Source: a virus. Taken from it: DNA of 64,000 bases. Of the stretch, positions 1,289 to 45,027 are shown one piece after another; the stretch's first letter is position 1, and each line of letters opens with the position of its first letter. The translations under genes were made by a program, and so were the position numbers. The notes below the pieces were generated by a model. It had not been told where the DNA came from and made no database searches. It saw only the letters and a program-made list of their open reading frames with translations. Location: positions 32,001-96,000 of IMG/VR virus record IMGVR_UViG_3300027797_000001. One strand, 5' to 3'.

Positions 1289-1304
1289 CTTATTATATAT
1301 AATT

Positions 1305-2159: not shown

Positions 2160-2161
2160 TC

Positions 2162-2200
2162 ATGTGTAGCTGCAGAAATAAAGGTAAAGTTAAAAAGTAA
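2162..2200 (+). CDS. candidate 12-aa micropeptide MCSCRNKGKVKK
   Basis: The ORF fills the gap between 2159 and 2204. It has the same TAA-TC-ATG junction as 688/691 and the same Lys-rich style as its neighbours. Confidence 0.45.
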   Translation: MCSCRNKGKVKK

Positions 2201-2203
2201 GTC

Positions 2204-8728: not shown

Positions 8729-8744
8729 TAATTAGTATATTATA
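8713..8744 (+). promoter_or_regulatory. putative late promoter TTG-N20-TATATT
   Basis: TTG at 8713-8715 and TATATT at 8736-8741; the ATG at 8748 is only 6 nt downstream. Confidence 0.5.
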
Positions 8745-10797: not shown

Positions 10798-10832
10798 TTT
10801 GTTAAAGTCATTTATTTTTAGTATATTAAATA
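10798..10832 (+). promoter_or_regulatory. putative late promoter TTTG-N20-TATATT
   Basis: TTTG at 10798-10801 and TATATT at 10822-10827, directly after a terminator and before ATG 10840. Confidence 0.6.
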
Positions 10833-18653: not shown

Positions 18654-21600
18654 TGTTTAATAAGAAGCTCCTTTCAAGTATAGATTTAGGGAAGTATAAA
18701 AAAAAGAATCCCTATAAGAAAGATATGATTTTAGATCCTATGGGTCAATGGAAACATCCTGGGAAAAATACTAGAATACCCTCTGACCGGATTACAATGA
18801 AAGGAGTTAATTATCCTGTCTTGGGTGTATCAAATACTGGACAAAAACAAATGATGCAACCCGGAAGAGAATATAATTTTCCTGGAGCAGATTATGTTGA
18901 TGAATATCCACAGATGAAAAACGGTGGTTTACCTAAAGCTCAAAAAGGTGCAGCTACATACCAAGATAGTTTAGATGTATATAATAATGCTTTAAAACTA
19001 AAAGCTTTTTATGATTCAAAAAAACAATTATATAATATATCTACTAGACCATGGTATGGTACAAGCAATTTAAAAAAGGAAGAAAAAGAAACATATGATT
19101 ATGATAAAAATCCGGCTAACAATCCGGATGTAAAAACTTGGACACCTCAACAAAAAAGAAATTTTCAAAAAACAAAAGATTTAATTAAAGCAAATAAAGA
19201 TCCAAACATTGCTTATATTACAGATCTAATAACAGGTGCTTTAGATCCAGATGCTCCTGCTTCAAGATATGATAATAGAATTAAACCTCAATCAGAAATA
19301 GCATATTCGCCTTATAAAGCTCAATATTCAAAAACAGAAGACTCACTTTATGACAAACTTCAGAAAAACTATGATGGTATGAGTAGTTATGGTGATCCAA
19401 GATTTCCTACCTTAACTCCAAGTAAAAAAGATCTTTTAGATTATGCTAAAAAACTTGGTTATAGTCAAAAAGATGCTATAAGTCTTTTATATAAACTTAA
19501 AAGAGAAAATCTTGCTATGGCAAACACACCTGGAGTTAATACTATCTTACCATATTATGATCCTCTTGCAGTAAAACCTGGGAAACTCCTTACAGATGAT
19601 GAAATAAGAATTAGAGTTAAGAAATATGGTACAACTGGTATTCCTCAAAATAGATTAGACAAACTTGGTTTAAATAGTTCAAACCCACCAAAAAGTTCAA
19701 ACCCACCGAAAAAAAGTACATCTTCTACAGTTACTAAATCACCATGTTCAAATCCAACAACTACTGTTATAAATAATGTACCAGATAAAATTCCTTTTGG
19801 AAAAAAGTTAGTTGGTACAGATGAAGAAACATTACCAGTAACTGGGAAAAAATGTGAGTATGTTAAAACTATAAATCCAATTTATGAGGATGTTACAATA
19901 GATCCTATTAAACCCCCAGCAATTGCATTAAGAGTAGACAATGGTATTTTACCACCATTGCAACAATCAACTTATGTTCCACAAGAACCTATTGAAGCTC
20001 CACAATATGCATTAGGCCCTTATACTGCTGATAGATTACGTTTATCAGTAACACCTGGAAAAACAAAAAAAGTAACAAAACGTGGAAGATTGTTTGATGG
20101 TAAAGGTCAAGGATATAAACATACAGAATATAAATCAACTAAAGATTTGGAGTTTGGAAAAAAAGAAGTTACTAGATTAATACCAAGAATTGTTCAGAAG
20201 ATTACTGGTTATGATCCAGAATACTTTGAAGGTTCTTATGATGAAGAAGGTAACTATATTCCTGGAGAATTAGACTTTGGTAATGAGGTTGGTGGTAGAA
20301 TGGAATTTAGAGGAGCTGCATCTTTACAAGATTTAATAAATCAACAGAAGTATGCAAAAGACTGGGAAGAGTATGAAAGAAAGATTGATGAGAGAGAAGA
20401 ACAATCAAAGAAAAAACAAGAAGAGGGTAGAGCATTTAAAAAAGGTGGAACAAAGAAAAGAATATATAACCCTAATGCAAAGTATTATGCGGATGGTGGA
20501 GAAAATTTACAAGAAGAATGTCCACCATATCACTATTGGAATGGAGAAACTTGTGTTCCAGTTAGTAGAGAGCTTGCTCCTCTTGATCCACAATACTTAT
20601 CAGAAAATCCAGATGTTGCAACAAACATGCAAATTGAACCAGAAGTAAGTGTTAGTCCATTAGGTTCGGATTTTTCCAAGGCAAAGTCATGGATTGATAA
20701 ATGGCATGATTCTCCAATGCATGATAAAATGCTTATGAAATCATTACAGGGTAATAAAAAACTTTTTAAAGAATATAAGGATAAAAGAAAAAAAAATATA
20801 CAAACTATTCCAGCACTAAATATTAGTTTAGATAAAAGTGATCCTTTATATAAAGAAATAAAAGATTATTATGGGTTTGCTCCATGGGGAGCATCGGATA
20901 GTAATACAGGTGCTGTTTCAATATATAATTCTCATCCTGGAAATAAACAAATGTTAATTCATGAGGTTACTCATTCTTCTGATAGACCAGATGATAAATT
21001 AGGTAGACTTATTCCACCTAATGACCAATTAACAATACAATATAGAATCCCATTAAATTGGAAATATAGTCAATATGGTAAAGATATGATGAAAGAATAT
21101 AAAGAAAAAGGGTGGCGGTTAGATGATGAATATATGGGTGAAGAAGAAATACCAAGAGATATATATGAACAACAACAATTTAATGATTGGAATAAATATT
21201 TATTAAGTGACCAAGGAACTGAGGTTAGAGCAAGATTAAGTGAGATAAGACAGGATGCACAAGAACAAAATATTTATGACCCTTTTAATAAAAAAATAAC
21301 AAGAAGGCAATTTAAAAATTTAAAAAATATAAAATATCCTGATTCATTAGATGACCTTAAAAAAACTTTTTCTGATAAAGATATAAAGTGGATGTTAAAT
21401 AACATTTCTAAAAACAATAATGAAACTGAAGATGCTATTCAATATGGTAAAAAAGGTGGGGCAAAGAAAAAATACACAAGTGATATAATTAATAGTACTA
21501 ATTATCTTTTTGCGGAACATCCTTTATTTAAAAAGAAGAAACAATCTAAGAAAAGAATATATAACCCTAATGCAAAGTATTATCAATTAGGTGGATTAAC

Positions 21601-24463
21601 ACGATTTGTACCACAAGCTGGTAGAATGTTTGCTTTACCACCTATTACTAATACAATTGCAAATACTGCACCAGGTATTTTAAATTCTATAAAGACTATA
21701 TCGCAAAAACTTCCTACTAATTTATTAGATGAAGGTGCAAGAGATTTATTACATTATCCTAGTTTTGATGTTACACTTGGAGAATCAAATTTAACAGGAG
21801 TTGATGCTGCAAAGTATTTGGGAGACTTTGGCTTTAAACCATATTCAGAAGGTTGGACAGCTCTAAGTGACATGAAAAATGCATTTGAAGGAAAACAATG
21901 GAATCCTAGTAAAGAAGATTATTATACTCTTGATGAAATTTATAATTTAATAAATAAGCAAACAAATTATTTAAATGATCTTGCTAAGTTTAATGAAACA
22001 AATCCTGATGAATTAGGTGAGTATGGAAATTTATTAAGATGGATGCAAAATGATTTTAGTAGAGATGAATTATTTTCATTGTTATTTCCAAATTCTAGTA
22101 GACCAAATTTTAAAGAAAAATTTTATCGCCCAGAACATATAAATTTATTAAAACAAACTACACCCAATCCTGAAACTGGTATAAATTTATATGATAATTT
22201 AATTAAAAATACCAATTTTGGAGATAAAGGTTTAGTAGATAAGTATACATTAAGAAGATCAATAACAGAACCTAATACTGAAATATTACCGGGATCTGAA
22301 GATCTAATGTTATATAGACAAAGATATGAACCCTACAGAGGTTTAGATGCTGGTAATTTAAGTGAACGTAAAGATGTAATAGAGTTTCTTAAAGATCATG
22401 ATGGCATTTTAGGTTTTGAATTTAAAGATCTTAATAATGAATATTCCAATAATTTAAATTATTGGAAAGAACAAATATTTGAAAAGTTTGATAATCGACA
22501 ATATAAAAAATTTCAAAAGAAGTTTAAAGAACAATCTAAACCTGGAACTAGCTCTAAACTTAAAGGATTAGATGCTTATAATCAAATAATTAATAGAACT
22601 GGTTCTAGAAATAAATACGGAGGAGAACTACCTAAAGGTAAATACGGATACTCTGTTGGTAATCTTATAAGAAAACAATTTGGTGGTTTAGGTAGAGATC
22701 AAAGTTTATCAGTTTCACCATATGATCTTGATACTTACATTGGAGCTTCTGGAAATCAAATATATAATCCAGGATATAGTCTTACATATAATAAGCCAAA
22801 CCTTTTTAAAAAATTAGATGTAGTTGGAACTCCTTTTCAAGTATCAATAGGAAGACCTTATAATACTGATCCAAATAGTTTAACTAATCAATCTTTAAAT
22901 TTTGGAACATCATATGACTATGAATATATGGATCCAGGAGTACAACAAGGTCCACAACAAGAAGCTATAAATAATGCAGCTGCACAATATTTAGGAAAGG
23001 ATGTTCAAGATTTAAACCAATCTGATTTAAATAAATTTTCAGCATTTAAATCATTAGGGGAAATTAAAAATGCTTATGCTCCAGGAAAACCAATTAATTT
23101 ATCTACAAAACTTTCATTTTTAGGTAAAGCATTTAGTGACCAACCTGTTAGAGGTTTTGGATCAATATCTGGTGGTTATAATCCTGAAGCAGGTTTTTGG
23201 GCAGGAGCTGATCTTGGAGGTTTTGGAGTAATCTCAAATAAAAAACCAAAAACATATTTTGATAGAGGTTTATCTAGAAAAGGAGATTGGGCGGTTATTC
23301 CTAGTCTTTCTTTATTCTCTCCAGCAATTAGACAAAAAGGAATTGCAAATCTAGAACAATCTGCAGAGTATAAACGCTTATTAGAAAAAGATATACAAGA
23401 GGGTACTGATTCAGCACAAAATTATTATGATAATCAATTAGATGATCAGGGTAAGTCAACAATGACATTTAATGCAAGACCGGAAATTAAAGCGCAACTT
23501 AAACCATTTAAAAAGTTTCCCGGAATCTTAGAAGGGGTAGTTGGAGCTAATATAGATTTTATAAGTGGTGGTAAGGATTCTATGGATAAAATTACAACTA
23601 ATATAAACCCATACGGCAAAATATCATATGCTGTTTCTATTCAAGATGAGTTAGATAGAATGAAACGTAAGATGAAAAATGTAGAATTTCCTGATAAAAA
23701 ACACTATGAAGATTACGTAGAAGAATATGAAAATCAAACTACAGAAGAAACTCCTACAGAAACTGATAATCAAATTAATCCACCGGAGGTTGAATTAAAT
23801 TTTGATGGTCAAGGAGTAGGAAAAGCAGACTGCCCTAAAGGCTATGAAAGACCATGTGAAAAATGCAGATGTCAAAAAATAAAAATGCCTCAAATGTATA
23901 CAGACAAAAGAGGTAAACAGTTATTTGGCAATGAGCCTATTAGATTTCAAGATGGTGGAGAACAGGATGCAATGAATGCTATGATGAAAGCAAGACTTGC
24001 TTATGCTAATATGTTTGGTAATCCCTCAGCACAAAGAATGATTAATCTTCCAGATCAACCTTATGAATTTGATAATGGGAATACAGGCACACACTACATG
24101 GCAAGTATGGATAACTATGCTGTACCTCAAATTCAAGATGAGAATGGAGTATTACAGATTGGAAACTATGGTCCAGAATCTACTGAGGCAATGAGATTTG
24201 ACTCAGATGAAGATGCTAATTATTTTGCAGAAAACTATAAAGATGTTTCACCAGGATTTATGGATCTAGAACTTGATGATAATGAGATAGAAGAATACAG
24301 AAAAGGTGGTTATATAATAGAAGATATTTCTGTGCCTTCACTAACTAGAATGCAGCCTGTTGGTAAATATCAAGATGGTGGAGAATATCAATTGGGTGAT
24401 GAAGTAGATGAAGCTACTATGAAACAATTAAAAAAATTAGGTTTTACATTTGAACAAATTTAG
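18653..24463 (+). CDS. modular cargo/internal virion protein with zincin-like HExxH module
   Basis: 1936 aa, modules separated by xxGG linkers. HEVTH at 20960-20974 with a downstream TEVRARL; N-terminal ITMKGVNYPVLG...MMQPG module. Confidence 0.65.
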   Translation: MFNKKLLSSIDLGKYKKKNPYKKDMILDPMGQWKHPGKNTRIPSDRITMKGVNYPVLGVSNTGQKQMMQPGREYNFPGADYVDEYPQMKNGGLPKAQKGAATYQDSLDVYNNALKLKAFYDSKKQLYNISTRPWYGTSNLKKEEKETYDYDKNPANNPDVKTWTPQQKRNFQKTKDLIKANKDPNIAYITDLITGALDPDAPASRYDNRIKPQSEIAYSPYKAQYSKTEDSLYDKLQKNYDGMSSYGDPRFPTLTPSKKDLLDYAKKLGYSQKDAISLLYKLKRENLAMANTPGVNTILPYYDPLAVKPGKLLTDDEIRIRVKKYGTTGIPQNRLDKLGLNSSNPPKSSNPPKKSTSSTVTKSPCSNPTTTVINNVPDKIPFGKKLVGTDEETLPVTGKKCEYVKTINPIYEDVTIDPIKPPAIALRVDNGILPPLQQSTYVPQEPIEAPQYALGPYTADRLRLSVTPGKTKKVTKRGRLFDGKGQGYKHTEYKSTKDLEFGKKEVTRLIPRIVQKITGYDPEYFEGSYDEEGNYIPGELDFGNEVGGRMEFRGAASLQDLINQQKYAKDWEEYERKIDEREEQSKKKQEEGRAFKKGGTKKRIYNPNAKYYADGGENLQEECPPYHYWNGETCVPVSRELAPLDPQYLSENPDVATNMQIEPEVSVSPLGSDFSKAKSWIDKWHDSPMHDKMLMKSLQGNKKLFKEYKDKRKKNIQTIPALNISLDKSDPLYKEIKDYYGFAPWGASDSNTGAVSIYNSHPGNKQMLIHEVTHSSDRPDDKLGRLIPPNDQLTIQYRIPLNWKYSQYGKDMMKEYKEKGWRLDDEYMGEEEIPRDIYEQQQFNDWNKYLLSDQGTEVRARLSEIRQDAQEQNIYDPFNKKITRRQFKNLKNIKYPDSLDDLKKTFSDKDIKWMLNNISKNNNETEDAIQYGKKGGAKKKYTSDIINSTNYLFAEHPLFKKKKQSKKRIYNPNAKYYQLGGLTRFVPQAGRMFALPPITNTIANTAPGILNSIKTISQKLPTNLLDEGARDLLHYPSFDVTLGESNLTGVDAAKYLGDFGFKPYSEGWTALSDMKNAFEGKQWNPSKEDYYTLDEIYNLINKQTNYLNDLAKFNETNPDELGEYGNLLRWMQNDFSRDELFSLLFPNSSRPNFKEKFYRPEHINLLKQTTPNPETGINLYDNLIKNTNFGDKGLVDKYTLRRSITEPNTEILPGSEDLMLYRQRYEPYRGLDAGNLSERKDVIEFLKDHDGILGFEFKDLNNEYSNNLNYWKEQIFEKFDNRQYKKFQKKFKEQSKPGTSSKLKGLDAYNQIINRTGSRNKYGGELPKGKYGYSVGNLIRKQFGGLGRDQSLSVSPYDLDTYIGASGNQIYNPGYSLTYNKPNLFKKLDVVGTPFQVSIGRPYNTDPNSLTNQSLNFGTSYDYEYMDPGVQQGPQQEAINNAAAQYLGKDVQDLNQSDLNKFSAFKSLGEIKNAYAPGKPINLSTKLSFLGKAFSDQPVRGFGSISGGYNPEAGFWAGADLGGFGVISNKKPKTYFDRGLSRKGDWAVIPSLSLFSPAIRQKGIANLEQSAEYKRLLEKDIQEGTDSAQNYYDNQLDDQGKSTMTFNARPEIKAQLKPFKKFPGILEGVVGANIDFISGGKDSMDKITTNINPYGKISYAVSIQDELDRMKRKMKNVEFPDKKHYEDYVEEYENQTTEETPTETDNQINPPEVELNFDGQGVGKADCPKGYERPCEKCRCQKIKMPQMYTDKRGKQLFGNEPIRFQDGGEQDAMNAMMKARLAYANMFGNPSAQRMINLPDQPYEFDNGNTGTHYMASMDNYAVPQIQDENGVLQIGNYGPESTEAMRFDSDEDANYFAENYKDVSPGFMDLELDDNEIEEYRKGGYIIEDISVPSLTRMQPVGKYQDGGEYQLGDEVDEATMKQLKKLGFTFEQI
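19676..19711 (+). repeat. 18-bp tandem repeat (SSNPPK x2)
   Basis: AGTTCAAACCCACC at 19676 and 19694. Confidence 0.85.
20453..21583 (+). repeat. perfect 36-bp direct repeats flanking the zincin module
   Basis: AAGAAAAGAATATATAACCCTAATGCAAAGTATTAT at 20453-20488 and 21548-21583, each encoding KKRIYNPNAKYY. Confidence 0.9.
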
Positions 24464-24465
24464 TG

Positions 24466-27400
24466 ATGGCAAAGTATAGAATTACAAGTTTACCGCAGTC
24501 TTTACCTAAAGCACAAAAAGGATTATTTAATAAAAGAAATAAAATATCTGTTAGAAACGGTGAAGTTAAATTGTTTCCAAATTTATTTGGTGATAAAAAA
24601 AGAAACAATATAGATACTCAAGATCAATCAGATGATACACAATATAACTGGTCTGGCACAACTCCAGAATTAATGCAACCTGATCAAGAGTCTTTTGAAT
24701 TAAAACCTACATATGCACCAACACCAGAGTTTACTCAAGCAGATGTTAATTTAAGTTCTACTCTTAGTAAAATACAAGAGGAGAGAGACAGATTAGCTCA
24801 AGAAAAAGAAAACAAGGATTGGGAAGAGATGATGAAAAAAAGAGATGAGAAATTTAAAACTTCTAAAAAATATGATAAAATAGAACCTTTGCTTACAATT
24901 GATTCTGAAGGATATGCAGATGAGGATCTTGCTTATTTTCAAGAGGCTGGATATTTTCCAGTAAAAGATTCAAAAACAAATAAAATAAATTTATATCCAT
25001 CAAATGAAATAAATTCAAAAATTATTAATAATGGTTTAAGAACAGATGAGATTGTTAAAAAACTTGGAATAGGTGATGCTGAATCTGTGAAGTCTGCTTT
25101 TGGAGATTTAATGACTGCTGCAGATCAACAGTATTCGGCTACTGTTCAAAACAAATTATTACAAAAATCACTAGATGAAGGTATTAGTTTAGAAGACGCA
25201 GTTAAAAAATTATCTGGTAAACTTGGAACTGAAAAAGGTCTTCAAAAATATGTTGCGCCTACTACTGATTTAATAAATAATTATATTGATGAAATTAAAA
25301 AAAATGTAAACCAACCTGCGGAGAAAGAACTTCAGTCAATGTACTATGATAATAGAAATCCTAATCAAGGTTATTCTCCAAAGATTGATTATAATTCATA
25401 TGATCCAGGGTTAAAATATAACACGGATTATTATAATACTACAAATAATTGGGGACAATTTCTTAAAGACTATTCTGATTATAATAAAGAGTATGATAAA
25501 GAATATGCAGATTCATTTTATAATAAACAAAATCAAACTGCTGATAAATTAAATTTACCTGTGTCAGATAGAACAGGAAATTTAAAAAATCAACAAGATG
25601 TGATTAATCAAAATATATCATTAACTAAACAAGTTGGAGATGTTTCTACAGAAGCAGGAAATAAAACAATAAATAAGAAGTATATAGAACAACTACAGGC
25701 AGACATGGCAAGAGTTTCTGATCCTTTAGTTAAATATGAACTAAGTAAAAAACTTGATGCAGTAAAAAATAATCCAGAAGCTTTTTCTAAACTCTTAAAA
25801 GGTTTTGAATCTGGAGAAGTCTTTACAAAAGAAGATGAAGATAATATCAATGCTTTAACTTTTAGTATCCTTCAAAAAGAATCAAATCCAGATACTATAA
25901 AAGCTGGTGTAGATAGACCTAAACTTACAACATCAGATAAAGTATTTGATGTATTAACTAATCCATTTGACGCATTTAAATATTCAAACCAAGGAGGTTT
26001 AGATAATATGTGGACTAGCGGTATGGGTTATAATGAAAGAAAACTTTTAGAAAGAGCTAATCCAGAATTAAATCTTGGAACACAAGATAATCTAGTTGGT
26101 AATGCTTTGAATACATGGAATCCAATGAGATTTGCAAGAGATGTAGATTCTGATCTAGATAGAGAAGACTATGCTTCTGCTGGTTTAGAGGCACTTGAGT
26201 TTGCTACTCCTGCAATGTTTTCAAAAGCTGCAAGAGCTGGTAGATTAGCTAGAGACGCAAGTAAGTTTTTTCCAACTGGTTCAATCACACCAGGATTAAA
26301 AGGATTTACCGGATCTGCTTTTGAATCATTAAATCCCTATTTTGCATATGAGGCAATAAGACCAGGGGGAGAATTAAATAGATCATACGATTTACTTAAA
26401 GAAGGAAATATTAAAGAAGGACTTCAAGAAGGTGCTTTTGGTCTATTAAATCTTTTACCTGCAGCTGGTACTTTTAAAAGTTTAAAAAGTGCTGAAAACA
26501 TAGGTGGTGCTAAACCATTTGTATCACAACAATTAAGTTTTAAGAAAGGAGGAGAGTTACCTACTTATCAAGGGCCAATAAGATCAATTGTAAAAAGTAT
26601 TCCTTCTAAACTTGGTAATTTAGCAATGAAGACTGGAATAAAAACATTGCAACTTCCCGGAGTTAAACCTTTTTTTAGAAGTAACTATAATCCAATTAGT
26701 TATCCAATTAGTTATCCAATAAAACTTTTAGGTGAAAAAATAGCTAGACAATCTCTTAGTCCAAGTAGAAATAAAGAACAAGTTATTGCTGCACTTACTA
26801 AAAAAGCAGCCCCAGAAGAAAACCTTTATTTTGGTAATGTAACTGCTGTGGATCCAGAATATGGTTATGGTAAAAGAGATTTAATTGCTAATTATTTTAG
26901 AGGTATAGATACTGGTTTTAAACCAATTGACTATGATATTTATTCAGATCCTGGTTTAAAAAAATATATAGATAGATATGGACCTTTAAAAACATATGAA
27001 CTTAATTCATCTGTTAAACATGGTCAACCTTTAGACATTGCTGATTTTACTAGGCTGCTAAATATAGATGATACTAAATTAAGTAATTTTGATCAAGATC
27101 TTTATGAAGATGAAGTTTTTCAAAATATGCCTGGTTTAGAAGATTATTACTATAATGAGTATATGAATAATCTTCCTGGAACTAGTACTCCTAGTCCATA
27201 TAAAGCACAAAGACAATACTATAAAAAAATGTTACATCAATATTTTGATAAACGCGGTATAGAAGTTCTCCCTCTAGTTGTTGATCCAGATTTGAATACA
27301 TTAGGTAATGTTAAAAATTATTTAAGCCGTAATCCCGCTATATCATATGATGATCTTGCTGGTCATATGGGTTATTTAAAAAGATTGCCAAACAAAGAAG

Positions 27401-27654
27401 ATTTTGAATTTACTACAAGAGATATATGGAAATTTACACCTGATGACTATCATTCTAAATGGGCAGGATCTTCAAATAAAGATGAACTGTTTAAACAATT
27501 ACAAGTTGAGGCTATGGATGCATTTGGAAAACCATTTGTTTTAACCCAAACAAATCCAATGAAATTTAAAAACGGTGGTTCAATGGAATTAGAATTAACA
27601 CCAAAACAAATTAAAGAGTATATAAAAGCTGGATATATCATTGAAGATATCTAA
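24466..27654 (+). CDS. modular cargo/internal virion protein
   Basis: ~1062 aa (ATG 24466 preferred over GTG 24463). N-terminal KYRITSLP..LPKAQKG, FKKGG and FKNGG linkers, C-terminal MELELT...GYIIEDI. Confidence 0.65.
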   Translation: MAKYRITSLPQSLPKAQKGLFNKRNKISVRNGEVKLFPNLFGDKKRNNIDTQDQSDDTQYNWSGTTPELMQPDQESFELKPTYAPTPEFTQADVNLSSTLSKIQEERDRLAQEKENKDWEEMMKKRDEKFKTSKKYDKIEPLLTIDSEGYADEDLAYFQEAGYFPVKDSKTNKINLYPSNEINSKIINNGLRTDEIVKKLGIGDAESVKSAFGDLMTAADQQYSATVQNKLLQKSLDEGISLEDAVKKLSGKLGTEKGLQKYVAPTTDLINNYIDEIKKNVNQPAEKELQSMYYDNRNPNQGYSPKIDYNSYDPGLKYNTDYYNTTNNWGQFLKDYSDYNKEYDKEYADSFYNKQNQTADKLNLPVSDRTGNLKNQQDVINQNISLTKQVGDVSTEAGNKTINKKYIEQLQADMARVSDPLVKYELSKKLDAVKNNPEAFSKLLKGFESGEVFTKEDEDNINALTFSILQKESNPDTIKAGVDRPKLTTSDKVFDVLTNPFDAFKYSNQGGLDNMWTSGMGYNERKLLERANPELNLGTQDNLVGNALNTWNPMRFARDVDSDLDREDYASAGLEALEFATPAMFSKAARAGRLARDASKFFPTGSITPGLKGFTGSAFESLNPYFAYEAIRPGGELNRSYDLLKEGNIKEGLQEGAFGLLNLLPAAGTFKSLKSAENIGGAKPFVSQQLSFKKGGELPTYQGPIRSIVKSIPSKLGNLAMKTGIKTLQLPGVKPFFRSNYNPISYPISYPIKLLGEKIARQSLSPSRNKEQVIAALTKKAAPEENLYFGNVTAVDPEYGYGKRDLIANYFRGIDTGFKPIDYDIYSDPGLKKYIDRYGPLKTYELNSSVKHGQPLDIADFTRLLNIDDTKLSNFDQDLYEDEVFQNMPGLEDYYYNEYMNNLPGTSTPSPYKAQRQYYKKMLHQYFDKRGIEVLPLVVDPDLNTLGNVKNYLSRNPAISYDDLAGHMGYLKRLPNKEDFEFTTRDIWKFTPDDYHSKWAGSSNKDELFKQLQVEAMDAFGKPFVLTQTNPMKFKNGGSMELELTPKQIKEYIKAGYIIEDI
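26690..26720 (+). repeat. 12-bp tandem repeat (PISY x2.5)
   Basis: ATCCAATTAGTT ATCCAATTAGTT ATCCAAT. Confidence 0.85.
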
Positions 27655-27699
27655 ACCTTTGAAGTTTACTCATTAAATTTATTTTTAGTATATTTAATA
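27652..27699 (+). promoter_or_regulatory. palindromic box TAAAC-N7-GTTTA plus TAGTATATT promoter element
   Basis: Box at 27652-27668 and TATATT at 27689-27694; identical spacing at 34004-34046. Confidence 0.55.
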
Positions 27700-27712
27700 T
27701 ATAACGTGCACA

Positions 27713-30700
27713 ATGACAAAAAAGAAAGTAAGAATATACAAGGCTCCAGATGGTAAAGGTCAGTATATAAATAAAACTGCAAAGTTCTTAAAGAAAGCTG
27801 CATTTGGTGGTCAATCAGATACTCCGCAAGAGGATATGTATTCTCAATTGGCACAAGCTTCATATATGTCTATTAAAAAGGGACAAAGTCCAAAGGCAGT
27901 ATATGACTTTTTAATTAATAATAAAATTAGTAAAGATGTTGCTGAGAAAATTGTGACAAGTGTTATACAGTTCATGATGTCAAAAGGTGAATTAGAACAA
28001 GAAGACCTTGACGAAGATCAGCAAAAAGAGCAACAGATGCAAGCTCAAATGCAACAACAGCAACAAGAAAAAGAACAAATGGCTTCTGAACAAGATGCTG
28101 CTAATGAAGCACAGATGGACATGTACAACAAACAAAGTATGGATGTTGCTAATGACATGTCTCAGTATGATCAAGAAGCAGAAGCTAACTTAGATACAGA
28201 AGATATATTAGGTTTTCAGGCTGGTGGTCAAATGACTACAGATGATTTATTGTCAGAACTTAATAAGCATGATAATGATATTAATTTCCAAGATTTAGAA
28301 TCATTAATTCAGTCTACTCCTGGAACACAAAGTGCATCATTCCCAGGGATTGAAGAATACTACTTACCTTATATTCCACTTTATAGTGAAAGCAATGAGA
28401 TTCCAATTTATAATCCAATACAAAGTGATAATCAATATAAGTTTGGGGGAAAAACAAAAAAGAAATTTATAGGATCAGTACTAGAACTTTTAAAGAAAGA
28501 AGAGGGTGGCGAGGATGAAGTAATTAATAATACTACAGCTACTCCTAAAGATGATCTTACAAATACTGTTAAGAGAAAACAAGATTCATTTGTATCAGCA
28601 TTAAGTGACGAAGCTAAAAAAATAAAAATAGAAGAGTATTATAATCAAATTAAAAATACAAATGATCCAGATACTCAAGAAATTTTAGGTGGAGGCCCTG
28701 ATCAAATGAAAAGGGGTGGCAGAACTAAAAGAAAAGATAATAGACTGCTTAGAAAATTAAATAGAATACTAGGACAAAATGATATGTATGGTATGCAAGG
28801 GTATATGCCATATAATTATTTTAATAAGCGTAGTGGAGATTTTGCAAATCAAAGATTTGATACTTTAGACTATCCATCAATTGCAGAATACTATAAAGCA
28901 TTGTTAGAGAAAATGCCAGTGTTAAATCAAATGTCAAGAGTATTGCCTCAAGTAGATGTTTATGACACAGGTTTATTTGGTAGACCAAAGAAGTATAAGA
29001 TTTCATATAACATTCAACCAGTAGATAAATCTGCAGAAAGACAAGCTATGGAAGCTGTTATTAAGAACAATACTGGATCATCTTTCCCAATGTTATATCC
29101 AAATCCTGGTTATGATGGTTCTCCTGCTCCAGCTGGTACAATGTTAGATGTAGTTAATGACCGCTCTATAGCTCCTATACAATATGATGCATCTGTAAAA
29201 CCTATGGTTCCTACAGGTCCAATGGCTTTTCAGTTTGGAGGTTCAGCTATTTTTGATCCTTCTGCAAGTACATTAGCAAAATATATCTATGGTGGCAATG
29301 ATTTTCCAGAAGATTCTAAGAATGTAAATGATCCATACTTTTCAGATACTACACCATATCCACAAATGCAAAATGGCGGAGATCCCACTGAATATACACA
29401 TTATACTCATGGAGCTAATGATGTATTTCATGATAACATGAATATGATAAATCAAGCTAAGGATGGTTTAGAAACTGGTGGTGATGAATATGCTCTTGAT
29501 TATATAAGACAACTTGCTGGTCAAATGAAGCAGTATAATAAAGCTTCTAGAAAATTAGGAAGGCAGGCAAGAAGAATGACTGGAAATACCATGTTAGATT
29601 ATTTAATTCCTATCAATAGACCTTTTGAGTATGCAGGAAGTTATGGTCAACAAAGGGGAATGCCATTTGATTATGAGACCGGTGAAGAATACACCGGTGA
29701 AATAGACCCATCTAATTTTGTAGCAAGGGATAATTATAAAATAGGAATGTTTGGTAAACCTAAAAAATTTATAGATTATTATTCAGTAGGTAATGAAGGA
29801 CTTAATGTTCCAGATGATTTTTCAGAAATTGAACCATATACAAAGTCAAAACAAAAAGCTCCTGCTCAACAAGATGTTTATAATGAACAAGAAGAGGAAG
29901 ACATTTCTTTTCGTCAAGCAAGAAGGAATGATGGCGTAAGTAATATTAGAGGTGCTTTTGCAAGAATGTTTCCTGAAAGTTCAGGTAGAGAAGATAGAGA
30001 AAGAATGTTTCCTATGCTCAGAGCTCAAGACTCAGATAGAAGTGAAGACAGAAGATTGTTTCCAATGATGAGGGCGGATAAAAAACAAGAAGGTGGAGAA
30101 CCAAACCAGGATGATTATTATAATGATTTATTTTCTAAATTAAACTATAGTAATACCTATAGCAATTATTACAATGAATTAGAATTTAGAAAAGGTGGAA
30201 GAGTATTAAGAAAAGCATTTGCGGGTTTAGAAAATACACCTGTTTCATATAATGACAATCCAGTTACTTCACAAAATATTATTAGTCAAAATACTCCAGA
30301 TCCTATGGAGCAAATGACAGCATTTCAAGGACCTATTATAGAAGATAGTGACTTTAATTTTCCAACTGATCTTCCTGGACCAGTTTCTACAACTAAACCT
30401 TATGTTGAACCTGCAGAAGATGATTGGTCAGGTCCTCAAATGAGTAATCCAGACATAGATTATCCTGCTGGTCCTGAGAAACTTAAAAATAAATTAGTAG
30501 GTGTTAAGAGAAAAAGAAAAGATATGTTTAATATAGATCCAGAAGCAGGTGTTAATGCATTTAATGCTGGAGCTAGAGGAGTTCTTGGTGGTATTGATAG
30601 AATGAGGAATAAGAAACAAGAAGCAAACATGTATGCTAAAAACTTTGACCCTACTAAAATTTATGGACAAAAATCAAGAATAGATAAAGGTGACTATGAT

Positions 30701-31069
30701 GTAAATAAAGGATTGTATAGAGTAAATCAAATGGGTGCTGATAGATTAGGCCGCTCTAAAAAGTATGGAGGTTATATGCAACCAGGAGGATCAGTAGATC
30801 AACAAATGTATTACCCTGAAGACAATATGGTTTATCCTCCAGGAGATAGTCAGTATCCAATGATTCCTTTGAATCAAGATATTATGGATATGATGTATAA
30901 CCAATACTATTCTGATCCTAACTTTGCACCTTATATGGAAGACCCATATATGGAAGAAACTCCAGAGCAAATGGACTACAGAATGGTAAAAGAAGGTGGA
31001 GAAACCTATATGTCAGATGAACAAATAAATGCCTTCTTAGCTGAAGGAGGAGAAATTGAATATTTATAA
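27713..31069 (+). CDS. low-complexity cargo/internal virion protein with many xxGG motifs
   Basis: 1118 aa, acidic and Gln/Met-rich, ~15 xxGG motifs, N-terminal KVRIYKAP, C-terminal GGEIEYL. Confidence 0.65.
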   Translation: MTKKKVRIYKAPDGKGQYINKTAKFLKKAAFGGQSDTPQEDMYSQLAQASYMSIKKGQSPKAVYDFLINNKISKDVAEKIVTSVIQFMMSKGELEQEDLDEDQQKEQQMQAQMQQQQQEKEQMASEQDAANEAQMDMYNKQSMDVANDMSQYDQEAEANLDTEDILGFQAGGQMTTDDLLSELNKHDNDINFQDLESLIQSTPGTQSASFPGIEEYYLPYIPLYSESNEIPIYNPIQSDNQYKFGGKTKKKFIGSVLELLKKEEGGEDEVINNTTATPKDDLTNTVKRKQDSFVSALSDEAKKIKIEEYYNQIKNTNDPDTQEILGGGPDQMKRGGRTKRKDNRLLRKLNRILGQNDMYGMQGYMPYNYFNKRSGDFANQRFDTLDYPSIAEYYKALLEKMPVLNQMSRVLPQVDVYDTGLFGRPKKYKISYNIQPVDKSAERQAMEAVIKNNTGSSFPMLYPNPGYDGSPAPAGTMLDVVNDRSIAPIQYDASVKPMVPTGPMAFQFGGSAIFDPSASTLAKYIYGGNDFPEDSKNVNDPYFSDTTPYPQMQNGGDPTEYTHYTHGANDVFHDNMNMINQAKDGLETGGDEYALDYIRQLAGQMKQYNKASRKLGRQARRMTGNTMLDYLIPINRPFEYAGSYGQQRGMPFDYETGEEYTGEIDPSNFVARDNYKIGMFGKPKKFIDYYSVGNEGLNVPDDFSEIEPYTKSKQKAPAQQDVYNEQEEEDISFRQARRNDGVSNIRGAFARMFPESSGREDRERMFPMLRAQDSDRSEDRRLFPMMRADKKQEGGEPNQDDYYNDLFSKLNYSNTYSNYYNELEFRKGGRVLRKAFAGLENTPVSYNDNPVTSQNIISQNTPDPMEQMTAFQGPIIEDSDFNFPTDLPGPVSTTKPYVEPAEDDWSGPQMSNPDIDYPAGPEKLKNKLVGVKRKRKDMFNIDPEAGVNAFNAGARGVLGGIDRMRNKKQEANMYAKNFDPTKIYGQKSRIDKGDYDVNKGLYRVNQMGADRLGRSKKYGGYMQPGGSVDQQMYYPEDNMVYPPGDSQYPMIPLNQDIMDMMYNQYYSDPNFAPYMEDPYMEETPEQMDYRMVKEGGETYMSDEQINAFLAEGGEIEYL

Positions 31070-31078
31070 TTTTGTATT

Positions 31079-34006
31079 ATGTATCATAGAGTAAGAATTA
31101 AAAAATTGCCACAGGCAAGAACAGGTTACCAAGTACAAGGTTCACTAGCTAATGATGTACCAGCTTTTGGTGGAGCAGATTATAATGCATATATAGGAAA
31201 ACCAAATCTTAGACAAAGTAAATATATTACAGCTGTACCAAGAGATGAAGCTAACTTAGAAGCAGAAGGTGGAGAAACTGTATATGGTGACATCAATGGA
31301 GATGGTTTTCCAGAACACAAAGTTATAAAAGGACCAAGACACTCAGCAGGTGGTGTACCATTATCATTACCAGATGATACATTTATTTTTAGTGATACTA
31401 AATCAATGAAGATAAATGATCCTAATGTTTTACAAATGTTTGGTAAAGCACCTAAGAAAGGAAAAGGTCAACATGGCTTTACTCCAGCAGATCTTGCTAA
31501 GCAATATGATATAGATAAGTATAGAAAAATATTACAAGATCCTGACTCAGATCATATTGCTAGAAAAACTGCTGAACTAATGATCCGTAACTATAATATG
31601 AAGTTAGGAGCTTTAGCATTAGCACAAGAAGCTAAAAAAGGATTTCCTCAAGGTATACCAGTAGTAGCTAAACCTTACATGGAAGCTATGGGTCTTACAG
31701 AAGATAAACTTCTACCAGCTGAATATAGAACATTGTCAGCTCCACAAGAAGAAGAAGAAATGCCAGAAGATCAAATGCAAGATCCTTCACAACAATATGC
31801 TTCTGATGATTATGATGTAGAGAATACACCATATGATACAGAAGAAGAAATGGGAATGCAACCTGGTATGGGATTAGATCAAGCAGCCATGGAAGGGCAA
31901 ATGCAAATGCCACCTATGGCTATGTATGGTATGGAGATGGGAGGTTATGATATGCCTTTTGCTGCATATGGTATGCCTATGGGAGCTAATTCTAGTAACT
32001 ATATGGGAAGAACTAAAAGAATCCAAGGTAGTGGTCCATTTCCAAACCGTCAAATGGCTAGAGAAGGAATTATTGCGGGTGGTGTATTAGGTATGCCATT
32101 GGTAATGCAAGATGGTGGATATTTACCTAAAGCTCAAACAGGACCAACAACACCTAAATATAAAACATATAATGAGGCTGATCTTCCTGCAGGAACTGCA
32201 GTTAAAGATCCTAAAGATATGAGTCTTAAGGTTGGTGATTATGTAAGACAAGCAGATGGTACAGTAACTAAAGTTACTAGTGCGGCTTTAAAAACAAAAG
32301 TTGATACACAAACTCGACCTGGTACAAGAGCAGACTTTATGAATGCATCTGCTGATAACAAAGCTATACTAGAAGCAGGAGATAAAATTATTGATAAAGC
32401 AATAGCCAGTGGACAAGCTGTAAGAGGTTATAAAAAACCAGATGGTACTTGGGTAAATGACAAAACAAAATCTGGTGTAAGATTATTAGGAGATTTAAAT
32501 TTACCATTTGAAGATAGAATTATACTAAGTAGAGCACTTAATTCTTCTCAAGAATTTGGTACTAATAAATATAAGGTTGAATCTCAAGCAATGACCAAAG
32601 GTTATTCTAGAAAAGTTGATGGTAAATTTAAAGGTTCAGGATCTTTTGTTTCTGGATTTACACCTGAAGATTATGAGAAGAGATATCTTTTTGAAAAAGC
32701 TAGAGGATTTGGTTTAAATGATCAAGAAGCATTTGATCAAATAAATAAAATATATGCGGATCCAGCAAAAACTTCTGAGATTAGAAAAGAATATTTAAAT
32801 TATTTAGGAAAAGGAAATTTAGCTACTGGTAAATCAGATGCTGATTTATTAAATCCTAATTTTTATAAAGCTAATTATGCTGAAGTAACTTCTGGAATTG
32901 AATCAGTATTAGGTGCAGCAGCAAATAGACCTACAATAGGTGATGAGCAATTATCTGGTTTTGAGCACTTTGATGCTGCTGGTTTAAGTCCAGAGTTTAA
33001 TTATGAACCACCTGAGAATCCATGTCCATGTAAAGATGATAGTGGTCAAACAGTAGTTAGAGATGCTGATGGAAATTGCCCATGTCCAGATAAACCAAAA
33101 GATTGTCCTTGTGGTAAAGATCCTATAACTGGACAATGTAAACCATGTGACGAAATACCACCGGGAAAAAAACCTCCTGTTACTCCACCAGCTAAATGGT
33201 GGTTGCAAGATACAATTAAAACTACTGGTGCATTTGGGGATTTAATGGGTATTAAAAAATATATGCCATGGTCACCTAAAGTAGATCTTGAAGAACCAAG
33301 ACCTACATTCTTAGATCCTACAAGAGAACTTGCTCAACAGTCTGAACAAGCAAATCTTGCCATCATGAATTTAGCTGCATTTGCTGGACCACAAGCTTTA
33401 TCTAGTAGAGCATCAAGCATACAAGGAACTGGGGCTAAATCAGCCGCAGATACTTTATCTAGAATAAATAATGCTAATGTTGGTATAGCAGATAATTTTG
33501 AGATGAAACAAGTAGATATTAGAAATCAAGAAGCACTTGCTAATCAAGCTGGACAGCAAAAACTTTATGATGCAAATACTATAGCTAATCAACAGTTTGA
33601 TAATTCAAGAATGGCATTAAGAAATCAAATGAGAAATCATTATACAAATGCTATTACTAATAAAGCTAAAACAGCTACATTAAATCAGTTGTATCCACAG
33701 TACGCAGTCTTGCCAGAGACTGGTGGTATGCCAGGATTTAAAGGCGGTAAGCCAATTAAACCTGAAGTTACAAAAACTGCTCAAGAATACTTTGATGAGA
33801 TAAAACTACAGTATCCTGATATGGATGACAAAACCGCATATCAAATGGCTAAAGATAGAGCAGGTACTCAAACAACCGATGATAATGCTATGGATGTTGT
33901 TAATGCACAATACAATGTTCCATCTGGAACAGATATGAGATATGGAGGATTTGCTAATGGAGGCTTTGTTTATGGAGACTCAATCTATCCTTTCTTTTTT
34001 ACTTAA
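31079..34006 (+). CDS. crAss-like cargo protein (E-x-E-GGE...G..H..GG...IFSD family)
   Basis: 975 aa. ANLEAEGGETV...KGPRHSAGGVP...TFIFSD resembles the conserved protein found after the muzzle gene in crAss-like phages. Has a Gln/Asn-rich helical C-terminal region and a CPC cluster. Confidence 0.65.
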   Translation: MYHRVRIKKLPQARTGYQVQGSLANDVPAFGGADYNAYIGKPNLRQSKYITAVPRDEANLEAEGGETVYGDINGDGFPEHKVIKGPRHSAGGVPLSLPDDTFIFSDTKSMKINDPNVLQMFGKAPKKGKGQHGFTPADLAKQYDIDKYRKILQDPDSDHIARKTAELMIRNYNMKLGALALAQEAKKGFPQGIPVVAKPYMEAMGLTEDKLLPAEYRTLSAPQEEEEMPEDQMQDPSQQYASDDYDVENTPYDTEEEMGMQPGMGLDQAAMEGQMQMPPMAMYGMEMGGYDMPFAAYGMPMGANSSNYMGRTKRIQGSGPFPNRQMAREGIIAGGVLGMPLVMQDGGYLPKAQTGPTTPKYKTYNEADLPAGTAVKDPKDMSLKVGDYVRQADGTVTKVTSAALKTKVDTQTRPGTRADFMNASADNKAILEAGDKIIDKAIASGQAVRGYKKPDGTWVNDKTKSGVRLLGDLNLPFEDRIILSRALNSSQEFGTNKYKVESQAMTKGYSRKVDGKFKGSGSFVSGFTPEDYEKRYLFEKARGFGLNDQEAFDQINKIYADPAKTSEIRKEYLNYLGKGNLATGKSDADLLNPNFYKANYAEVTSGIESVLGAAANRPTIGDEQLSGFEHFDAAGLSPEFNYEPPENPCPCKDDSGQTVVRDADGNCPCPDKPKDCPCGKDPITGQCKPCDEIPPGKKPPVTPPAKWWLQDTIKTTGAFGDLMGIKKYMPWSPKVDLEEPRPTFLDPTRELAQQSEQANLAIMNLAAFAGPQALSSRASSIQGTGAKSAADTLSRINNANVGIADNFEMKQVDIRNQEALANQAGQQKLYDANTIANQQFDNSRMALRNQMRNHYTNAITNKAKTATLNQLYPQYAVLPETGGMPGFKGGKPIKPEVTKTAQEYFDEIKLQYPDMDDKTAYQMAKDRAGTQTTDDNAMDVVNAQYNVPSGTDMRYGGFANGGFVYGDSIYPFFFT

Positions 34007-34050
34007 ACTTTTAAGATTTATTAAACTTAATAAATTTTAATATATTTATA
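34004..34050 (+). promoter_or_regulatory. palindromic box TAAAC-N7-ATTTA plus TAATATATT promoter element
   Basis: Box at 34004-34020 and TATATT at 34041-34046; ATG at 34066. Confidence 0.55.
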
Positions 34051-34065
34051 TTATAATAATAAAAT

Positions 34066-37000
34066 ATGGCAACGTATATACAAGGGGTTACAGATTATAT
34101 ACCAGATTACCAGCCTTTTCAGCCTGACTTAAATTTCTATGCAAGTGCTTTGCAGACAAAACAAAATCAGTATGATAGTAATTATAAGGCTTTAAATAAT
34201 TTATATGGTCAATATTTTTATGCTGATTTAACAAGACCTGATAATATTAAAAAGAAAGATCAATTACTTAAGAATATTGACTTTAATTTAAACAGGGTAG
34301 CTGGTTTAGATTTATCATTAGAACAAAATGTTCAACAAGCTACTCAGATCTTTACACCATTTTATGAAGACCAATTCTTGATGAAAGATATGGCCTATAC
34401 TAAAAACTTTAGCAGTTCTTATAATGGTGCATTAGCATTACAGAAAAGTAAAGACAAAGAAACATATTCTAAATACTGGAATGAGGGAGTTAAGTATATG
34501 TTATATGAAAGAGAAAAGTTTAAAAAATCAACTGATGAAGAATCATTAGGATTTGCTAATGCAGAGTATGTGCCTTATAAAAATGCAGTTGAAACTTACA
34601 TGAAACTTGCAAAAGATATGGGTATATCAGCTGATATAACTCAATCCAATGGTAGATACTTTGTTCGTCAAAAAAATGGAGATTTAATTCTTCAAGATTT
34701 AAGTAGAATTTTTACATCTGCTTTTGCTAATGACCCTCAACTTCAAAAAATAGCTCAAGTTCAAGCTGTAGTAAATAGAGAAGATAAGATTAGAGAACTT
34801 GCTGGTAAATATAATGGAGATATTGCTGCTGCAGAAAGAGAATATTTACAAACTCAAAACGCAACTATCCAAGAATATATTGCATTAAAAAATTCTAAGA
34901 ATAAAGAGAATTTAAAAACTGTAGAAAATAAAACTGAATCTGTAAATAAAAAACTTGAATTTGGTGAAGGAAATCAATTTACAGAATCTTATGTAAAGTC
35001 TCTTGAGAAAGCATATGGTATTGCACAAGATAATGTTAATTATAGTGATGCTTTAAGTAATGAAATTTCTGATGACAAAAACAGAACATTAACTACTGCT
35101 GGAGGAACATCTAATCCTGATGATATTGAACAATTAAGATATAAAGTAGATGCGGGTACTGCATCAATGTTTGCAGAACAAGATATTGCTGAAGCAGCAT
35201 ATCAACGTTCTAGAGTAGATATGGTAGTTGATATATCAGCAGATCCATATGGTGTGTCCGCACAAAATCATGCATTTGCATTATCTAGACAGAGAGAAGC
35301 ACAAGCCCATAAAGAGTTCATGCTTGAACAAAAAGATATAAAAGATAAAGAAAATCTTGTTCTTAATGCTGGATTAGTTAATGGTACTTATATTGGTACA
35401 CAACAGGTAATGGGTGCAGATGGTAAAATGCATACTGAAGGAATTCCAAATCCAGCACTATTCAATAGAAGAACATTATTAGATACTGACTCTGGTGCAG
35501 CTACAGATGGAGAAAATAAACTTGTTGCAAATAGAGATAAATTAAAAGAAGTTACATCTGAATATGCAGATCCAATGATTAAAAACATTGTTAATACTCT
35601 TAACATGTTTGTTAAAGCTGGATATTTAAATAAGGGTGATATTGCTCCAATGTTTTTTAATGGTAAAATGGACGCAAATCAGTTCCTTAAAAATTATCAA
35701 GATAAGTCATACGGATATTTAAGTGGAAAAGGTGCTGATTATTTAGAAACACTTTATAATAAAGTTACTACATTTGCTATGGCACACAGAGGTGATGCTG
35801 GAGTAGCTGATTCATATTTAAGTAGTTCTTCTCATGAGAAGTTTGATGACTATGTAACATATCTTAGAGCAAATAAAAAACTTAAAGCTGATAATGCAGA
35901 AGTTATAAATAAGAATTTATATTCTTCTGTTGCTTTAAGCAGCTTAGGTTTAGATGATAAAATGAAAGAAAAACTAATAAGTAGTTTTTATGATAAAAAC
36001 AGTTTAATGATTTTATCAAAAGATGATTTTATCAATAGTAATAAAAATATGAAAGTTAATTCTGCTTTGCATTATCCTCTTTCCGTAACTAGTCCTGAAC
36101 AAACTGATAAAAGTTTTTCAATGACTCAGAAAGAATATAATACTTGGAAGCAAAATGTTTTAAAACTTGACAAAGAGTTATTCTCTATAGATCCAGCTGG
36201 AAAATTTTCAAATAAACTTATTGGTAATGTTGCAAGTATTGGTGATCCAAATCTTAGAAAAAAATATAACAGAGTACAACAAATCAAAAGTGATCTACAA
36301 AGAATGGGTGCTTGGAATGGTGAGAGAAAAATTGTTATTACTGATCATAAAGATGTAAACGGTAATGTAAAACCAATAGGTGTAAAACATAATGGATCTT
36401 CAATTTGGGATAATGTTAGTAGAGACAAAGAAGAAGTACTATCTGGAATATATGATGAGTTTGCAAGAAATTTTGTAAACACATCAAAAAGTAGAGAAAT
36501 TAAAAGTGTCTATGACTCTCCACATTTTAAAGGTACTGGTTTAGCAAGTACAGGAATTAATGGTTTAGATGTTTCAATGGCTGCACCTACTAGTCCTGGA
36601 TTTAAAGCTTATATAGATTTTATGGAAAAGGATATGACTAGAATAAATCTATATGATGGAAAAAATAAAGTAAGTTTCTTTGGTGCTAATAAAACTGGTG
36701 TAAATGATACTGAAGATTTATTGGATAATAATGATGCTGCTAAAGTAACTGAATTAATTCTAGAGCACTACTATAAAAATATTGGTAAAAAAGATATTAA
36801 ACCATTCTTCTTTGGTTCAAGACAAATTGCTCTTGAAGATAAAAATACCGGAGCAATGGTTATTAAACCAGACAATCAAGTATTAAAAGAACTTATAGAA
36901 TCAGATACTCAAGGTTTAATTACTAAAGAAGTACAACAAGCCATATTAAAAAATGGCATCTCTATTATATCTAATAAAAATAATTTCAGTAATGATATCT

Positions 37001-37308
37001 TTAAAGGTAATGAAACAACACCTTTAGAAAGTATGGTAAATGCATTAGAGGAAATTACTTATGTTAATCCTATGGGTGGTGGTGAAGTAACTGTTGCAAA
37101 AAATACAACTGGTACATCTGATTATAATATTTATGGAATACAATATTATATGGACAAAAATGGTCAGAAAAAATCAGAAAAATTTACACTACCTGTATTG
37201 ATGTATCAAAATAATATTGATCAACTTTTTTATCAGGCTAAGCAAATGCTTAGAGAGAATGCGGAAGATTATGCTGCAGAATATAGAAGATTCCATCAAA
37301 ATAAATAA
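34066..37308 (+). CDS. cargo/ejection protein
   Basis: 1080 aa, no Cys seen. N-terminal YIPDYQPFQPDLNF...KQNQYD resembles crAss-like proteins preceding the giant-gene block. Confidence 0.65.
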   Translation: MATYIQGVTDYIPDYQPFQPDLNFYASALQTKQNQYDSNYKALNNLYGQYFYADLTRPDNIKKKDQLLKNIDFNLNRVAGLDLSLEQNVQQATQIFTPFYEDQFLMKDMAYTKNFSSSYNGALALQKSKDKETYSKYWNEGVKYMLYEREKFKKSTDEESLGFANAEYVPYKNAVETYMKLAKDMGISADITQSNGRYFVRQKNGDLILQDLSRIFTSAFANDPQLQKIAQVQAVVNREDKIRELAGKYNGDIAAAEREYLQTQNATIQEYIALKNSKNKENLKTVENKTESVNKKLEFGEGNQFTESYVKSLEKAYGIAQDNVNYSDALSNEISDDKNRTLTTAGGTSNPDDIEQLRYKVDAGTASMFAEQDIAEAAYQRSRVDMVVDISADPYGVSAQNHAFALSRQREAQAHKEFMLEQKDIKDKENLVLNAGLVNGTYIGTQQVMGADGKMHTEGIPNPALFNRRTLLDTDSGAATDGENKLVANRDKLKEVTSEYADPMIKNIVNTLNMFVKAGYLNKGDIAPMFFNGKMDANQFLKNYQDKSYGYLSGKGADYLETLYNKVTTFAMAHRGDAGVADSYLSSSSHEKFDDYVTYLRANKKLKADNAEVINKNLYSSVALSSLGLDDKMKEKLISSFYDKNSLMILSKDDFINSNKNMKVNSALHYPLSVTSPEQTDKSFSMTQKEYNTWKQNVLKLDKELFSIDPAGKFSNKLIGNVASIGDPNLRKKYNRVQQIKSDLQRMGAWNGERKIVITDHKDVNGNVKPIGVKHNGSSIWDNVSRDKEEVLSGIYDEFARNFVNTSKSREIKSVYDSPHFKGTGLASTGINGLDVSMAAPTSPGFKAYIDFMEKDMTRINLYDGKNKVSFFGANKTGVNDTEDLLDNNDAAKVTELILEHYYKNIGKKDIKPFFFGSRQIALEDKNTGAMVIKPDNQVLKELIESDTQGLITKEVQQAILKNGISIISNKNNFSNDIFKGNETTPLESMVNALEEITYVNPMGGGEVTVAKNTTGTSDYNIYGIQYYMDKNGQKKSEKFTLPVLMYQNNIDQLFYQAKQMLRENAEDYAAEYRRFHQNK

Positions 37309-45024: not shown

Positions 45025-45027
45025 GAA

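Follow-up and report, generated by a model that had tools for sequence, protein, structure and literature searches.

How podoviruses, and crassviruses above all, load megadaltons of protein into the head and eject them in order is an open question. Bearing on it is a 64,000-nucleotide stretch of the IMG/VR record IMGVR_UViG_3300027797_000001 (positions 32,001 to 96,000, hereafter the window), which is the virion module of the 114.9-kb genome of an uncultured crAss-like phage (record length 114,922 bp; about 30% G+C). Four consecutive genes in the window encode the large cargo proteins A, B, C and D, and at each of the three junctions between them (A|B, B|C and C|D) the upstream protein ends in a small acidic unit, while the downstream protein begins with a basic strand. 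These end motifs are conserved among related loci, are under selection at the protein level, are restricted to this gene block and behave jointly in natural variants. We consider here whether the two pieces could form a clasp that re-joins the cargo across the gene breaks, an interpretation that our analysis partly supports.

Acidic units at the ends of three consecutive cargo proteins

Proteins A (1936 amino acids (aa), 18653..24463), B (1062 aa, 24466..27654) and C (1118 aa, 27713..31069) terminate in an acidic strand-helix-strand unit of roughly 22 residues, and D (975 aa, 31079..34006) lacks a C-terminal unit, as an earlier note on this sequence had described. All four genes, together with the motifs located within them, lie on the plus strand. 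The terminal unit of A (24383..24460) is of a type with a longer helix, the A-type, and is found at all 14 distinct A|B junctions; that of B (27583..27651, B-type) is preceded by a Gly-Gly tag; and that of C (31001..31066, C-type) is predicted by AlphaFold2 (AF2) to be a strand-helix-strand. A further B-type unit lies inside A (24260..24328). The earlier note had regarded this internal copy as an extra and a possible branch point; it is indeed present, but it is no oddity, being conserved in nearly every homologue of A or of AB, the single protein that takes the place of A and B in some genomes.

The core pattern G-[YFG]-x-[IVF]-E-x-[ILV] matches four times in the 77 open reading frames of the whole genome (34,481 residues), each time in one of these units, compared with a mean of 0.74 matches in residue shuffles. 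Since this pattern was derived post hoc from the units themselves, we added independent tests with a hidden Markov model (HMM) and with profiles. With an HMM trained solely on database homologues of B, the internal unit of A was recovered (E = 6e-8), and profile-profile comparisons linked three of the units at 84–99% (B-end with A-internal, 98.9%; B-end with C-end, 91%; C-end with A-internal, 84%), with control comparisons of C-unit against N-unit giving under 1%. The proposed kinship of the ends therefore holds for those of B and C and for the internal copy, but the end of A matches that of B only weakly (37%). The acidic unit has no family entry in Pfam or PHROGs, and the only Pfam match near a terminus was SutA-RBD, at 16.5 bits and hence under its cut-off of 29.3.

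The acidic unit is widespread: when 1.84 billion proteins were searched with a profile of 74 units, 1048 cluster representatives matched at E <= 0.001. In the best 150 of them there are two to four units per protein; 126 of these proteins have a unit within five residues of the C-terminus, and 228 of 354 copies are internal. None of the 228 internal copies in these best 150 representatives has a basic strand behind it, which makes the basic strand at a new N-terminus the sole element specific to a broken chain. In continuous A-type chains, the internal units run directly into S-[VI]-P-S-L...G-G; in the window, this S-V-P-S-L ... G-G tag stands in cis behind the internal unit of A (24329..24382) and resembles the second half of the N-motif of B (hhalign against the B N-terminus, 56%, E = 1e-4).

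Basic strands and Gly-Gly tags at the following N-termini

B, C and D open with a basic strand that is followed by a Gly-Gly tag. The N-motif of B (24466..24522) consists of the strand in MAKYRITSLP and a P-K-A-Q-x-G tag. That of C (27713..27811) begins MTKKKVRIYK, where VRIYK is the basic strand, probably continues with a hairpin and a short helix, and ends in a Gly-Gly tag. In D (31079..31126), which starts MYHRVRIKKLP, the strand RVRIKK leads into the tag L-P-Q-A-R-T-G. Protein A has a basic N-terminus of its own, of the MFNKKLL type and without a VRI-type strand, again in agreement with the earlier note. All of the motif strings quoted there were found exactly where it had placed them; the N-motif is a basic strand, as proposed, but extends further, into a P-K-A-Q-x-G(G) tag.

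The N-motif of B is retained in 27 of 28 homologues, down to 26% identity, and the exception (P0013) begins inside the protein. At the N-terminus of C, V-R-I-Y is nearly invariant across 33 diverse homologues. Profile-profile comparison of the N-ends gave 89% for B with D and 59% for C with D, but 0.1% for B with C.

The anatomy of the junctions is thus body, tag, acidic unit and stop, followed by start, basic strand, tag and body. An [FYM]-x-x-G-G tag stands ahead of each unit, and a tag, often L-P-K-A-Q-x-G, stands behind each N-strand, such that the tags enclose the bodies and leave units and N-strands on the outside. Among the 33 diverse C proteins hardly any column other than the Gly-Gly pairs is invariant, and Gly-Gly tags also punctuate the body of A, which is modular.

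The same [FYM]-x-x-G-G tags, often followed by x-L-P-K-A-Q-x-G, occur throughout A to D (18653-34006), for example at A 91, A 1323, B 695 and D 346, and recur many times in small basic virion proteins encoded upstream (window 1-2488). A peptide ending in Y-N-P-N-A-K-Y-Y is found twice in A (residues about 600-613 and 968-978; window 20441-21595), each time running into a G-G tag. An N-motif-like start, M-K-K-I-T-K-K-M-P-K-A-Q-A-G, is also present in a 128-aa basic protein encoded outside the window (genome 19393-19779; L059:394-777), for which no homologue was found in the five related records searched.

Conserved ends and exchangeable bodies

We compared the window with 57 related loci from viral and metagenome contigs, in which the gene order of the cargo block is identical, and with 28 homologues of B and 104 of C. 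Family-specific ends are kept in the 57 loci. Nearly all 28 B homologues keep both ends, down to 26% identity, and many of the 104 C homologues align over about 8% of the query, which corresponds to its two ends. Conservation in family B is 0.64 over the first 25 residues and 0.55 over the last 25, compared with 0.30 in the interior; the values for family C are 0.45, 0.53 and 0.16, respectively, and in both families the terminal 25-residue windows are the best conserved windows of the protein. In ten of the loci (L001-L010), A stands at the same position and has the same ends.

Between these conserved ends, lengths range from 183 to 2789 aa, and the bodies diverge and exchange modules, with swaps seen among close relatives (for example, the window compared with L011 and L052). 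An Amidase_2 peptidoglycan hydrolase domain (L025:5021-6067, E = 3e-20) and a SET domain (L020:683-1282, E = 2e-10) are found in A-type cargo proteins, modules that fit strings of injected effectors. A-type proteins of relatives also contain HExxH-x-x-D-R-P, the HExxH segment being conserved.

Within the codons of the motifs, third positions differ in 36–51% of comparisons, against 11–25% at positions 1 and 2. Free third positions together with retained amino acids indicate selection at the level of the protein, not of the DNA.

Both pieces behave jointly in several natural variants

At the A|B junction, each of the 14 distinct proteins ending in an A-type unit has directly behind it a gene with the start MAKY[RK]I, at a distance of 2 nucleotides (nt) or overlapping by 1 nt; both pieces are therefore present at 14 of 14 distinct junctions into B. 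Genomes with a single AB protein have neither the terminal A unit nor the B strand, and on a D-domain tree the split state of AB has switched at least five times. In raw counts, junctions into C comprise 42 loci with both pieces, 4 with neither and 7 with the N-strand only, and junctions into D comprise 46 with both and 4 with neither; the single mismatch there, L027, is a pattern miss, as the strand is present. The co-occurrence at adjacent gene junctions that the earlier note had suggested looking for in relatives is seen at most loci, though not at the seven that have the strand only. The strand occurs only at new N-termini; the unit is found internally as well.

Several variants affect one junction at a time. 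In one clade (L052, L053, L056 and L057) both pieces have been replaced at the B|C joint alone, the upstream protein having no unit and C opening with a short N-terminus that lacks the VRIYK strand; the C|D pair is retained in these loci, and L052 also has the A|B pair. In L037-39 and L042 the last strand of the C unit and the basic strand of D have decayed jointly. Where C and D are fused (P0067 and P0068), neither the acidic unit nor the basic strand is left, and the flanking tags are joined; a search for longer C homologues, aimed at such fusions, found none. At the level of single residues, a Glu-to-Lys change in the unit accompanies an Arg-to-Gln change in the strand between the sister loci L043 and L044.

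In L007 and L008 (12400-13000), a +1 frameshift interrupts B, and the terminal unit continues in the +1 frame. This region is identical in two metagenome samples; the shift may be genuine or may stem from misassembly.

Structure prediction of the C|D junction

In the window, as in about 20 loci, C and D are separated by an in-frame gap of 9 nt, and for this reason the natural read-through was chosen for folding. The construct (A5, 14 rows) comprised the last 45 residues of C, the TAA stop read as Gly, three further residues and residues 1-140 of D. AF2 predicted a strand (24-27), a helix (29-37) and two more strands (41-48 and 51-58) at a predicted local distance difference test (pLDDT) score of 59–74. 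The last of these strands is the N-strand of D, with a pLDDT of about 65–74 when the C tail is tethered. In a prediction of D 1-140 alone from the same 14 loci (A6), residues 1-48 had a pLDDT of 25–39 and no secondary structure. Ordering of the D strand in the presence of the tethered C tail would fit with completion of a fold. The beta-alpha-beta acceptor completed by a donor strand, as envisaged in the earlier note, is reproduced in the topology of the tethered prediction, but at low confidence and with a tether that favours a hairpin. For the B|C junction, a complex prediction of B 1018-1062 with C 1-45, each supplied as an alignment, gave a score of 0.20 (mark 0.32) in a run without controls.

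We also considered programmed read-through at C|D and rejected it, as the gaps of relatives measure 8, 10, 5 or 3 nt as well.

A proposed docking model and its alternatives

In the model that our data suggest, the cargo proteins are strings of exchangeable modules with Gly-Gly tags between them. The string is split into genes at A|B, B|C and C|D, each break having an acidic mini-domain on the upstream protein and a basic beta-strand on the downstream one. Most likely, the basic strand would join the sheet of the unit as an extra strand, by way of a hydrophobic face and of Glu/Asp pairing with Arg/Lys. In this way, separately translated proteins could be re-joined non-covalently and packaged together, and the joined proteins would perhaps exit the virion one after another. 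We put the probability that unit and strand form such a socket-and-plug clasp, re-joining the cargo string at the gene breaks, at roughly 45–50%. Physical contact between the pieces, its specificity, the order that would result from it and any later removal at the Gly-Gly tags are what we infer from the behaviour of the motifs. A bolder version seems doubtful to us, namely that a portable split clasp re-joins a fragmented cargo 'polyprotein', so that several giant proteins are loaded and then threaded out through the tail as one ordered string, with spare internal sockets as branch points for additional proteins that bear a plug. A short, conserved and portable socket and plug at every break of the string would provide a concrete and testable molecular basis for ordered ejection via mutual interactions, and would account for the ease with which cargo modules are exchanged without harm to assembly.

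A number of observations weigh against this model. The acidic unit occurs one to three times internally in nearly every A or AB protein, so that sockets outnumber plugs and the unit is not solely a terminal docking piece; the strict linear chain in gene order, which the earlier note had deduced from the absence of one motif at either end of the series, does not follow. Its presence within A-type chains that are not split means that the unit must do something else or bind something else as well, and such copies could be spare sockets, sites of self-association or a means of binding a common site in the virion. Seven loci (L017, L023/L030 and the L025 group) carry the N-strand of C without a terminal unit upstream; in the L025 group, an Amidase_2 domain has been added after the unit, making the latter internal. 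The 128-aa protein with an N-motif-like start has no unit-bearing gene upstream of it; it might plug into one of the spare internal sockets.

The co-inheritance of the two pieces can also be put down to linkage alone. Unit and strand lie no more than about 60 nt apart and are inherited together, and this linkage can mimic co-evolution; fusion by deletion removes both ends by necessity. On the D-domain tree, the upstream state changes six times and the downstream state twice, and there are too few independent pairs for a phylogeny-aware sign test on co-loss to have power. Residue covariation between unit and strand is anecdotal, the same Glu-to-Lys change being uncompensated between L018 and L033. 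The tethered AF2 model has a mean pLDDT of 53, and its four-residue linker favours a hairpin.

Part of this picture would be expected if the acidic unit were an autonomous handle, binding a common virion component (portal, capsid interior or scaffold) or pairing with itself, and the basic N-strand an unrelated leader that threads into an electronegative channel or binds DNA; the match at the junctions would then result incidentally from a gene order that is fixed. We regard this as unlikely, even though the number of units in A-type proteins (two to four, with 228 of 354 copies internal), the excess of sockets over plugs in every genome examined and the seven loci that have an N-strand but no terminal unit upstream all speak for it, as does crAss001, where separate segments of the cargo protein gp45 contact the portal and the tail barrel (PMC10172136). 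A handle and a leader leave unexplained the restriction of the basic strand to new N-termini that immediately follow a gene with a unit, the loss of both pieces at a single junction in L052-L057 and in L037-42, and the dispensability of both in the C–D fusion.

Another proposal, compatible with docking, is that the end pieces are removable pro-peptides, used in assembly only, and that the Gly-Gly tags are sites of a maturation protease. Every unit and N-strand does lie outside an [FYM]-x-x-G-G or P-K-A-Q-x-G tag, the Gly-Gly pairs are the near-sole invariant columns in the 33 diverse C proteins, the small basic virion proteins have the tags too, and A-type proteins contain a conserved HExxH segment. 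The tags can equally be read as uncut hinges, however, and a Pfam scan of A to E, E being the next protein of the block, gave no protease family; we consider this proposal quite improbable. The conserved ends might also reflect features of the DNA, such as promoters, translational coupling signals or anchors for cassette recombination, in line with intergenic gaps of fixed length within the L001-L010 clade (A|B, 2 nt; B|C, 57–58 nt; C|D, 8 nt) and of similar length elsewhere (46–64 nt and 3–10 nt), with a TTAGTATATT box upstream of C and with the swapping of bodies between close relatives. We rejected this explanation, which is very improbable given that third codon positions vary freely while amino acids are kept, that the motifs persist at 25% overall protein identity and that internal copies adjoin no gene boundary.

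Other features of the gene block

The cargo block starts at the gene for the crassvirus muzzle protein (1836 aa, 13143..18653, plus strand; Pfam PF25731 crAss_MUZ, E = 4.5e-18). Directly 3' of it and on the same strand lie A to D and then protein E (1080 aa, 34066..37308), and downstream of A to E follow giant RNA polymerase (RNAP)-type proteins of 2571, 3508 and about 2377 aa, an arrangement that identifies a Crassvirales virion cargo block. Proteins A to E could be assigned to no Pfam or PHROG family, and Pfam searches at E <= 1 with pieces of A, D and E returned noise only. A tblastn search of the cargo proteins against 50,697 phage records gave one weak partial match, and blastn against the same collection gave nothing useful. 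Viral contigs scanned with B or with P0050 as the single query yielded no matches. The model of the N-domain of D, which is conserved, had no match in the PDB at E <= 0.001 with Foldseek.

D ends without an acidic unit in a conserved hydrophobic tail, G-G-F-[IV]-Y ... P-F-[FI]-[LFM], and the start of E is very conserved (M-A-T-Y-[IL]-Q-G-V-T-D-Y-I-P); these two ends (window 33950-34140) may represent a junction pair of another type. Cysteines at facing ends of the giant proteins (window 45007-45036 and 55537-55567) form a second head-to-tail feature, with ...C-N-I and ...C-K-I as the upstream C-termini and M-A-C and M-V-C as the starts of the proteins that follow.

The sequence TTAGTATATT occurs at window positions 8732-8741, 10818-10827 and 27685-27694, 7–19 nt 5' of three start codons, that of C included. 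Three matches compare with 0.9 expected, and 7 of 100 shuffles reach three; the element may be a phage promoter box. The B|C spacer that carries it is mostly 57–58 nt long and is conserved in relatives.

Comparison with known systems

In the solved virion of crAss001, cargo proteins whose genes follow that of the muzzle reside in the capsid and tail and leave ahead of the DNA, in an order that probably depends on packing and on mutual interactions (PMC10172136). The crAss001 proteins gp45 (C1) and gp46 (C2) are encoded directly behind the muzzle gene and, like the proteins described here, are large; they are partly unfolded, virion-borne and expected to be first out, but they show no detectable sequence similarity to A to E, and terminal docking motifs are not described for them (PMC10172136). 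Two such cargo proteins are present in crAss001, compared with four or five in this phage. Our literature search found no paper describing these end motifs.

Contacts between the end of one ejection protein and the start of the next have a precedent in the pre-ejectosome of cyanophage A4, a cyanopodophage, in which the C-terminal helix of gp27 and its Cys1715 are joined to Cys5 of gp26 (PMC12002296). In A4, ejection proteins of adjacent genes meet C-end to N-end inside the capsid (PMC12002296). The A4 contact is a helix in a cleft with a disulfide, whereas the pieces described here are a cysteine-free acidic/basic family at three junctions.

The docking domains of polyketide synthases (PKS) and non-ribosomal peptide synthetases (NRPS) offer a parallel of another kind. 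They are short, portable C- and N-terminal pieces encoded in consecutive genes and are thought to set the choice and the order of partners, and the cargo block has the same layout, with a C-terminal piece on the upstream protein and an N-terminal piece on the downstream protein of consecutive genes. They differ in fold type and share no sequence relation with the cargo pieces (no Pfam match pointed to homology with a known docking domain family), and in this phage the context is virion cargo, the acidic piece is also found within chains, and the pairing is putative. In the donor-strand complementation of chaperone-usher pili, each subunit has its sheet completed by the N-strand of its successor and an ordered chain results, as is proposed here; the acceptor in pili is, however, an incomplete Ig fold of about 150 residues, in place of a 22-residue mini-domain, and there is no homology. 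The capsid targeting sequence of T4 and the cargo-loading peptides of encapsulins are likewise short terminal tags on proteins destined for the capsid interior, but they are single, bind shell or scaffold and do not form complementary junction pairs. Gly-Gly processing in adenovirus and African swine fever virus would be the analogue of tag cleavage if the end pieces were pro-peptides. The closest in concept are the PKS/NRPS docking domains and the A4 contact, and the closest by position are gp45 and gp46 of crAss001; none of these is related in sequence.

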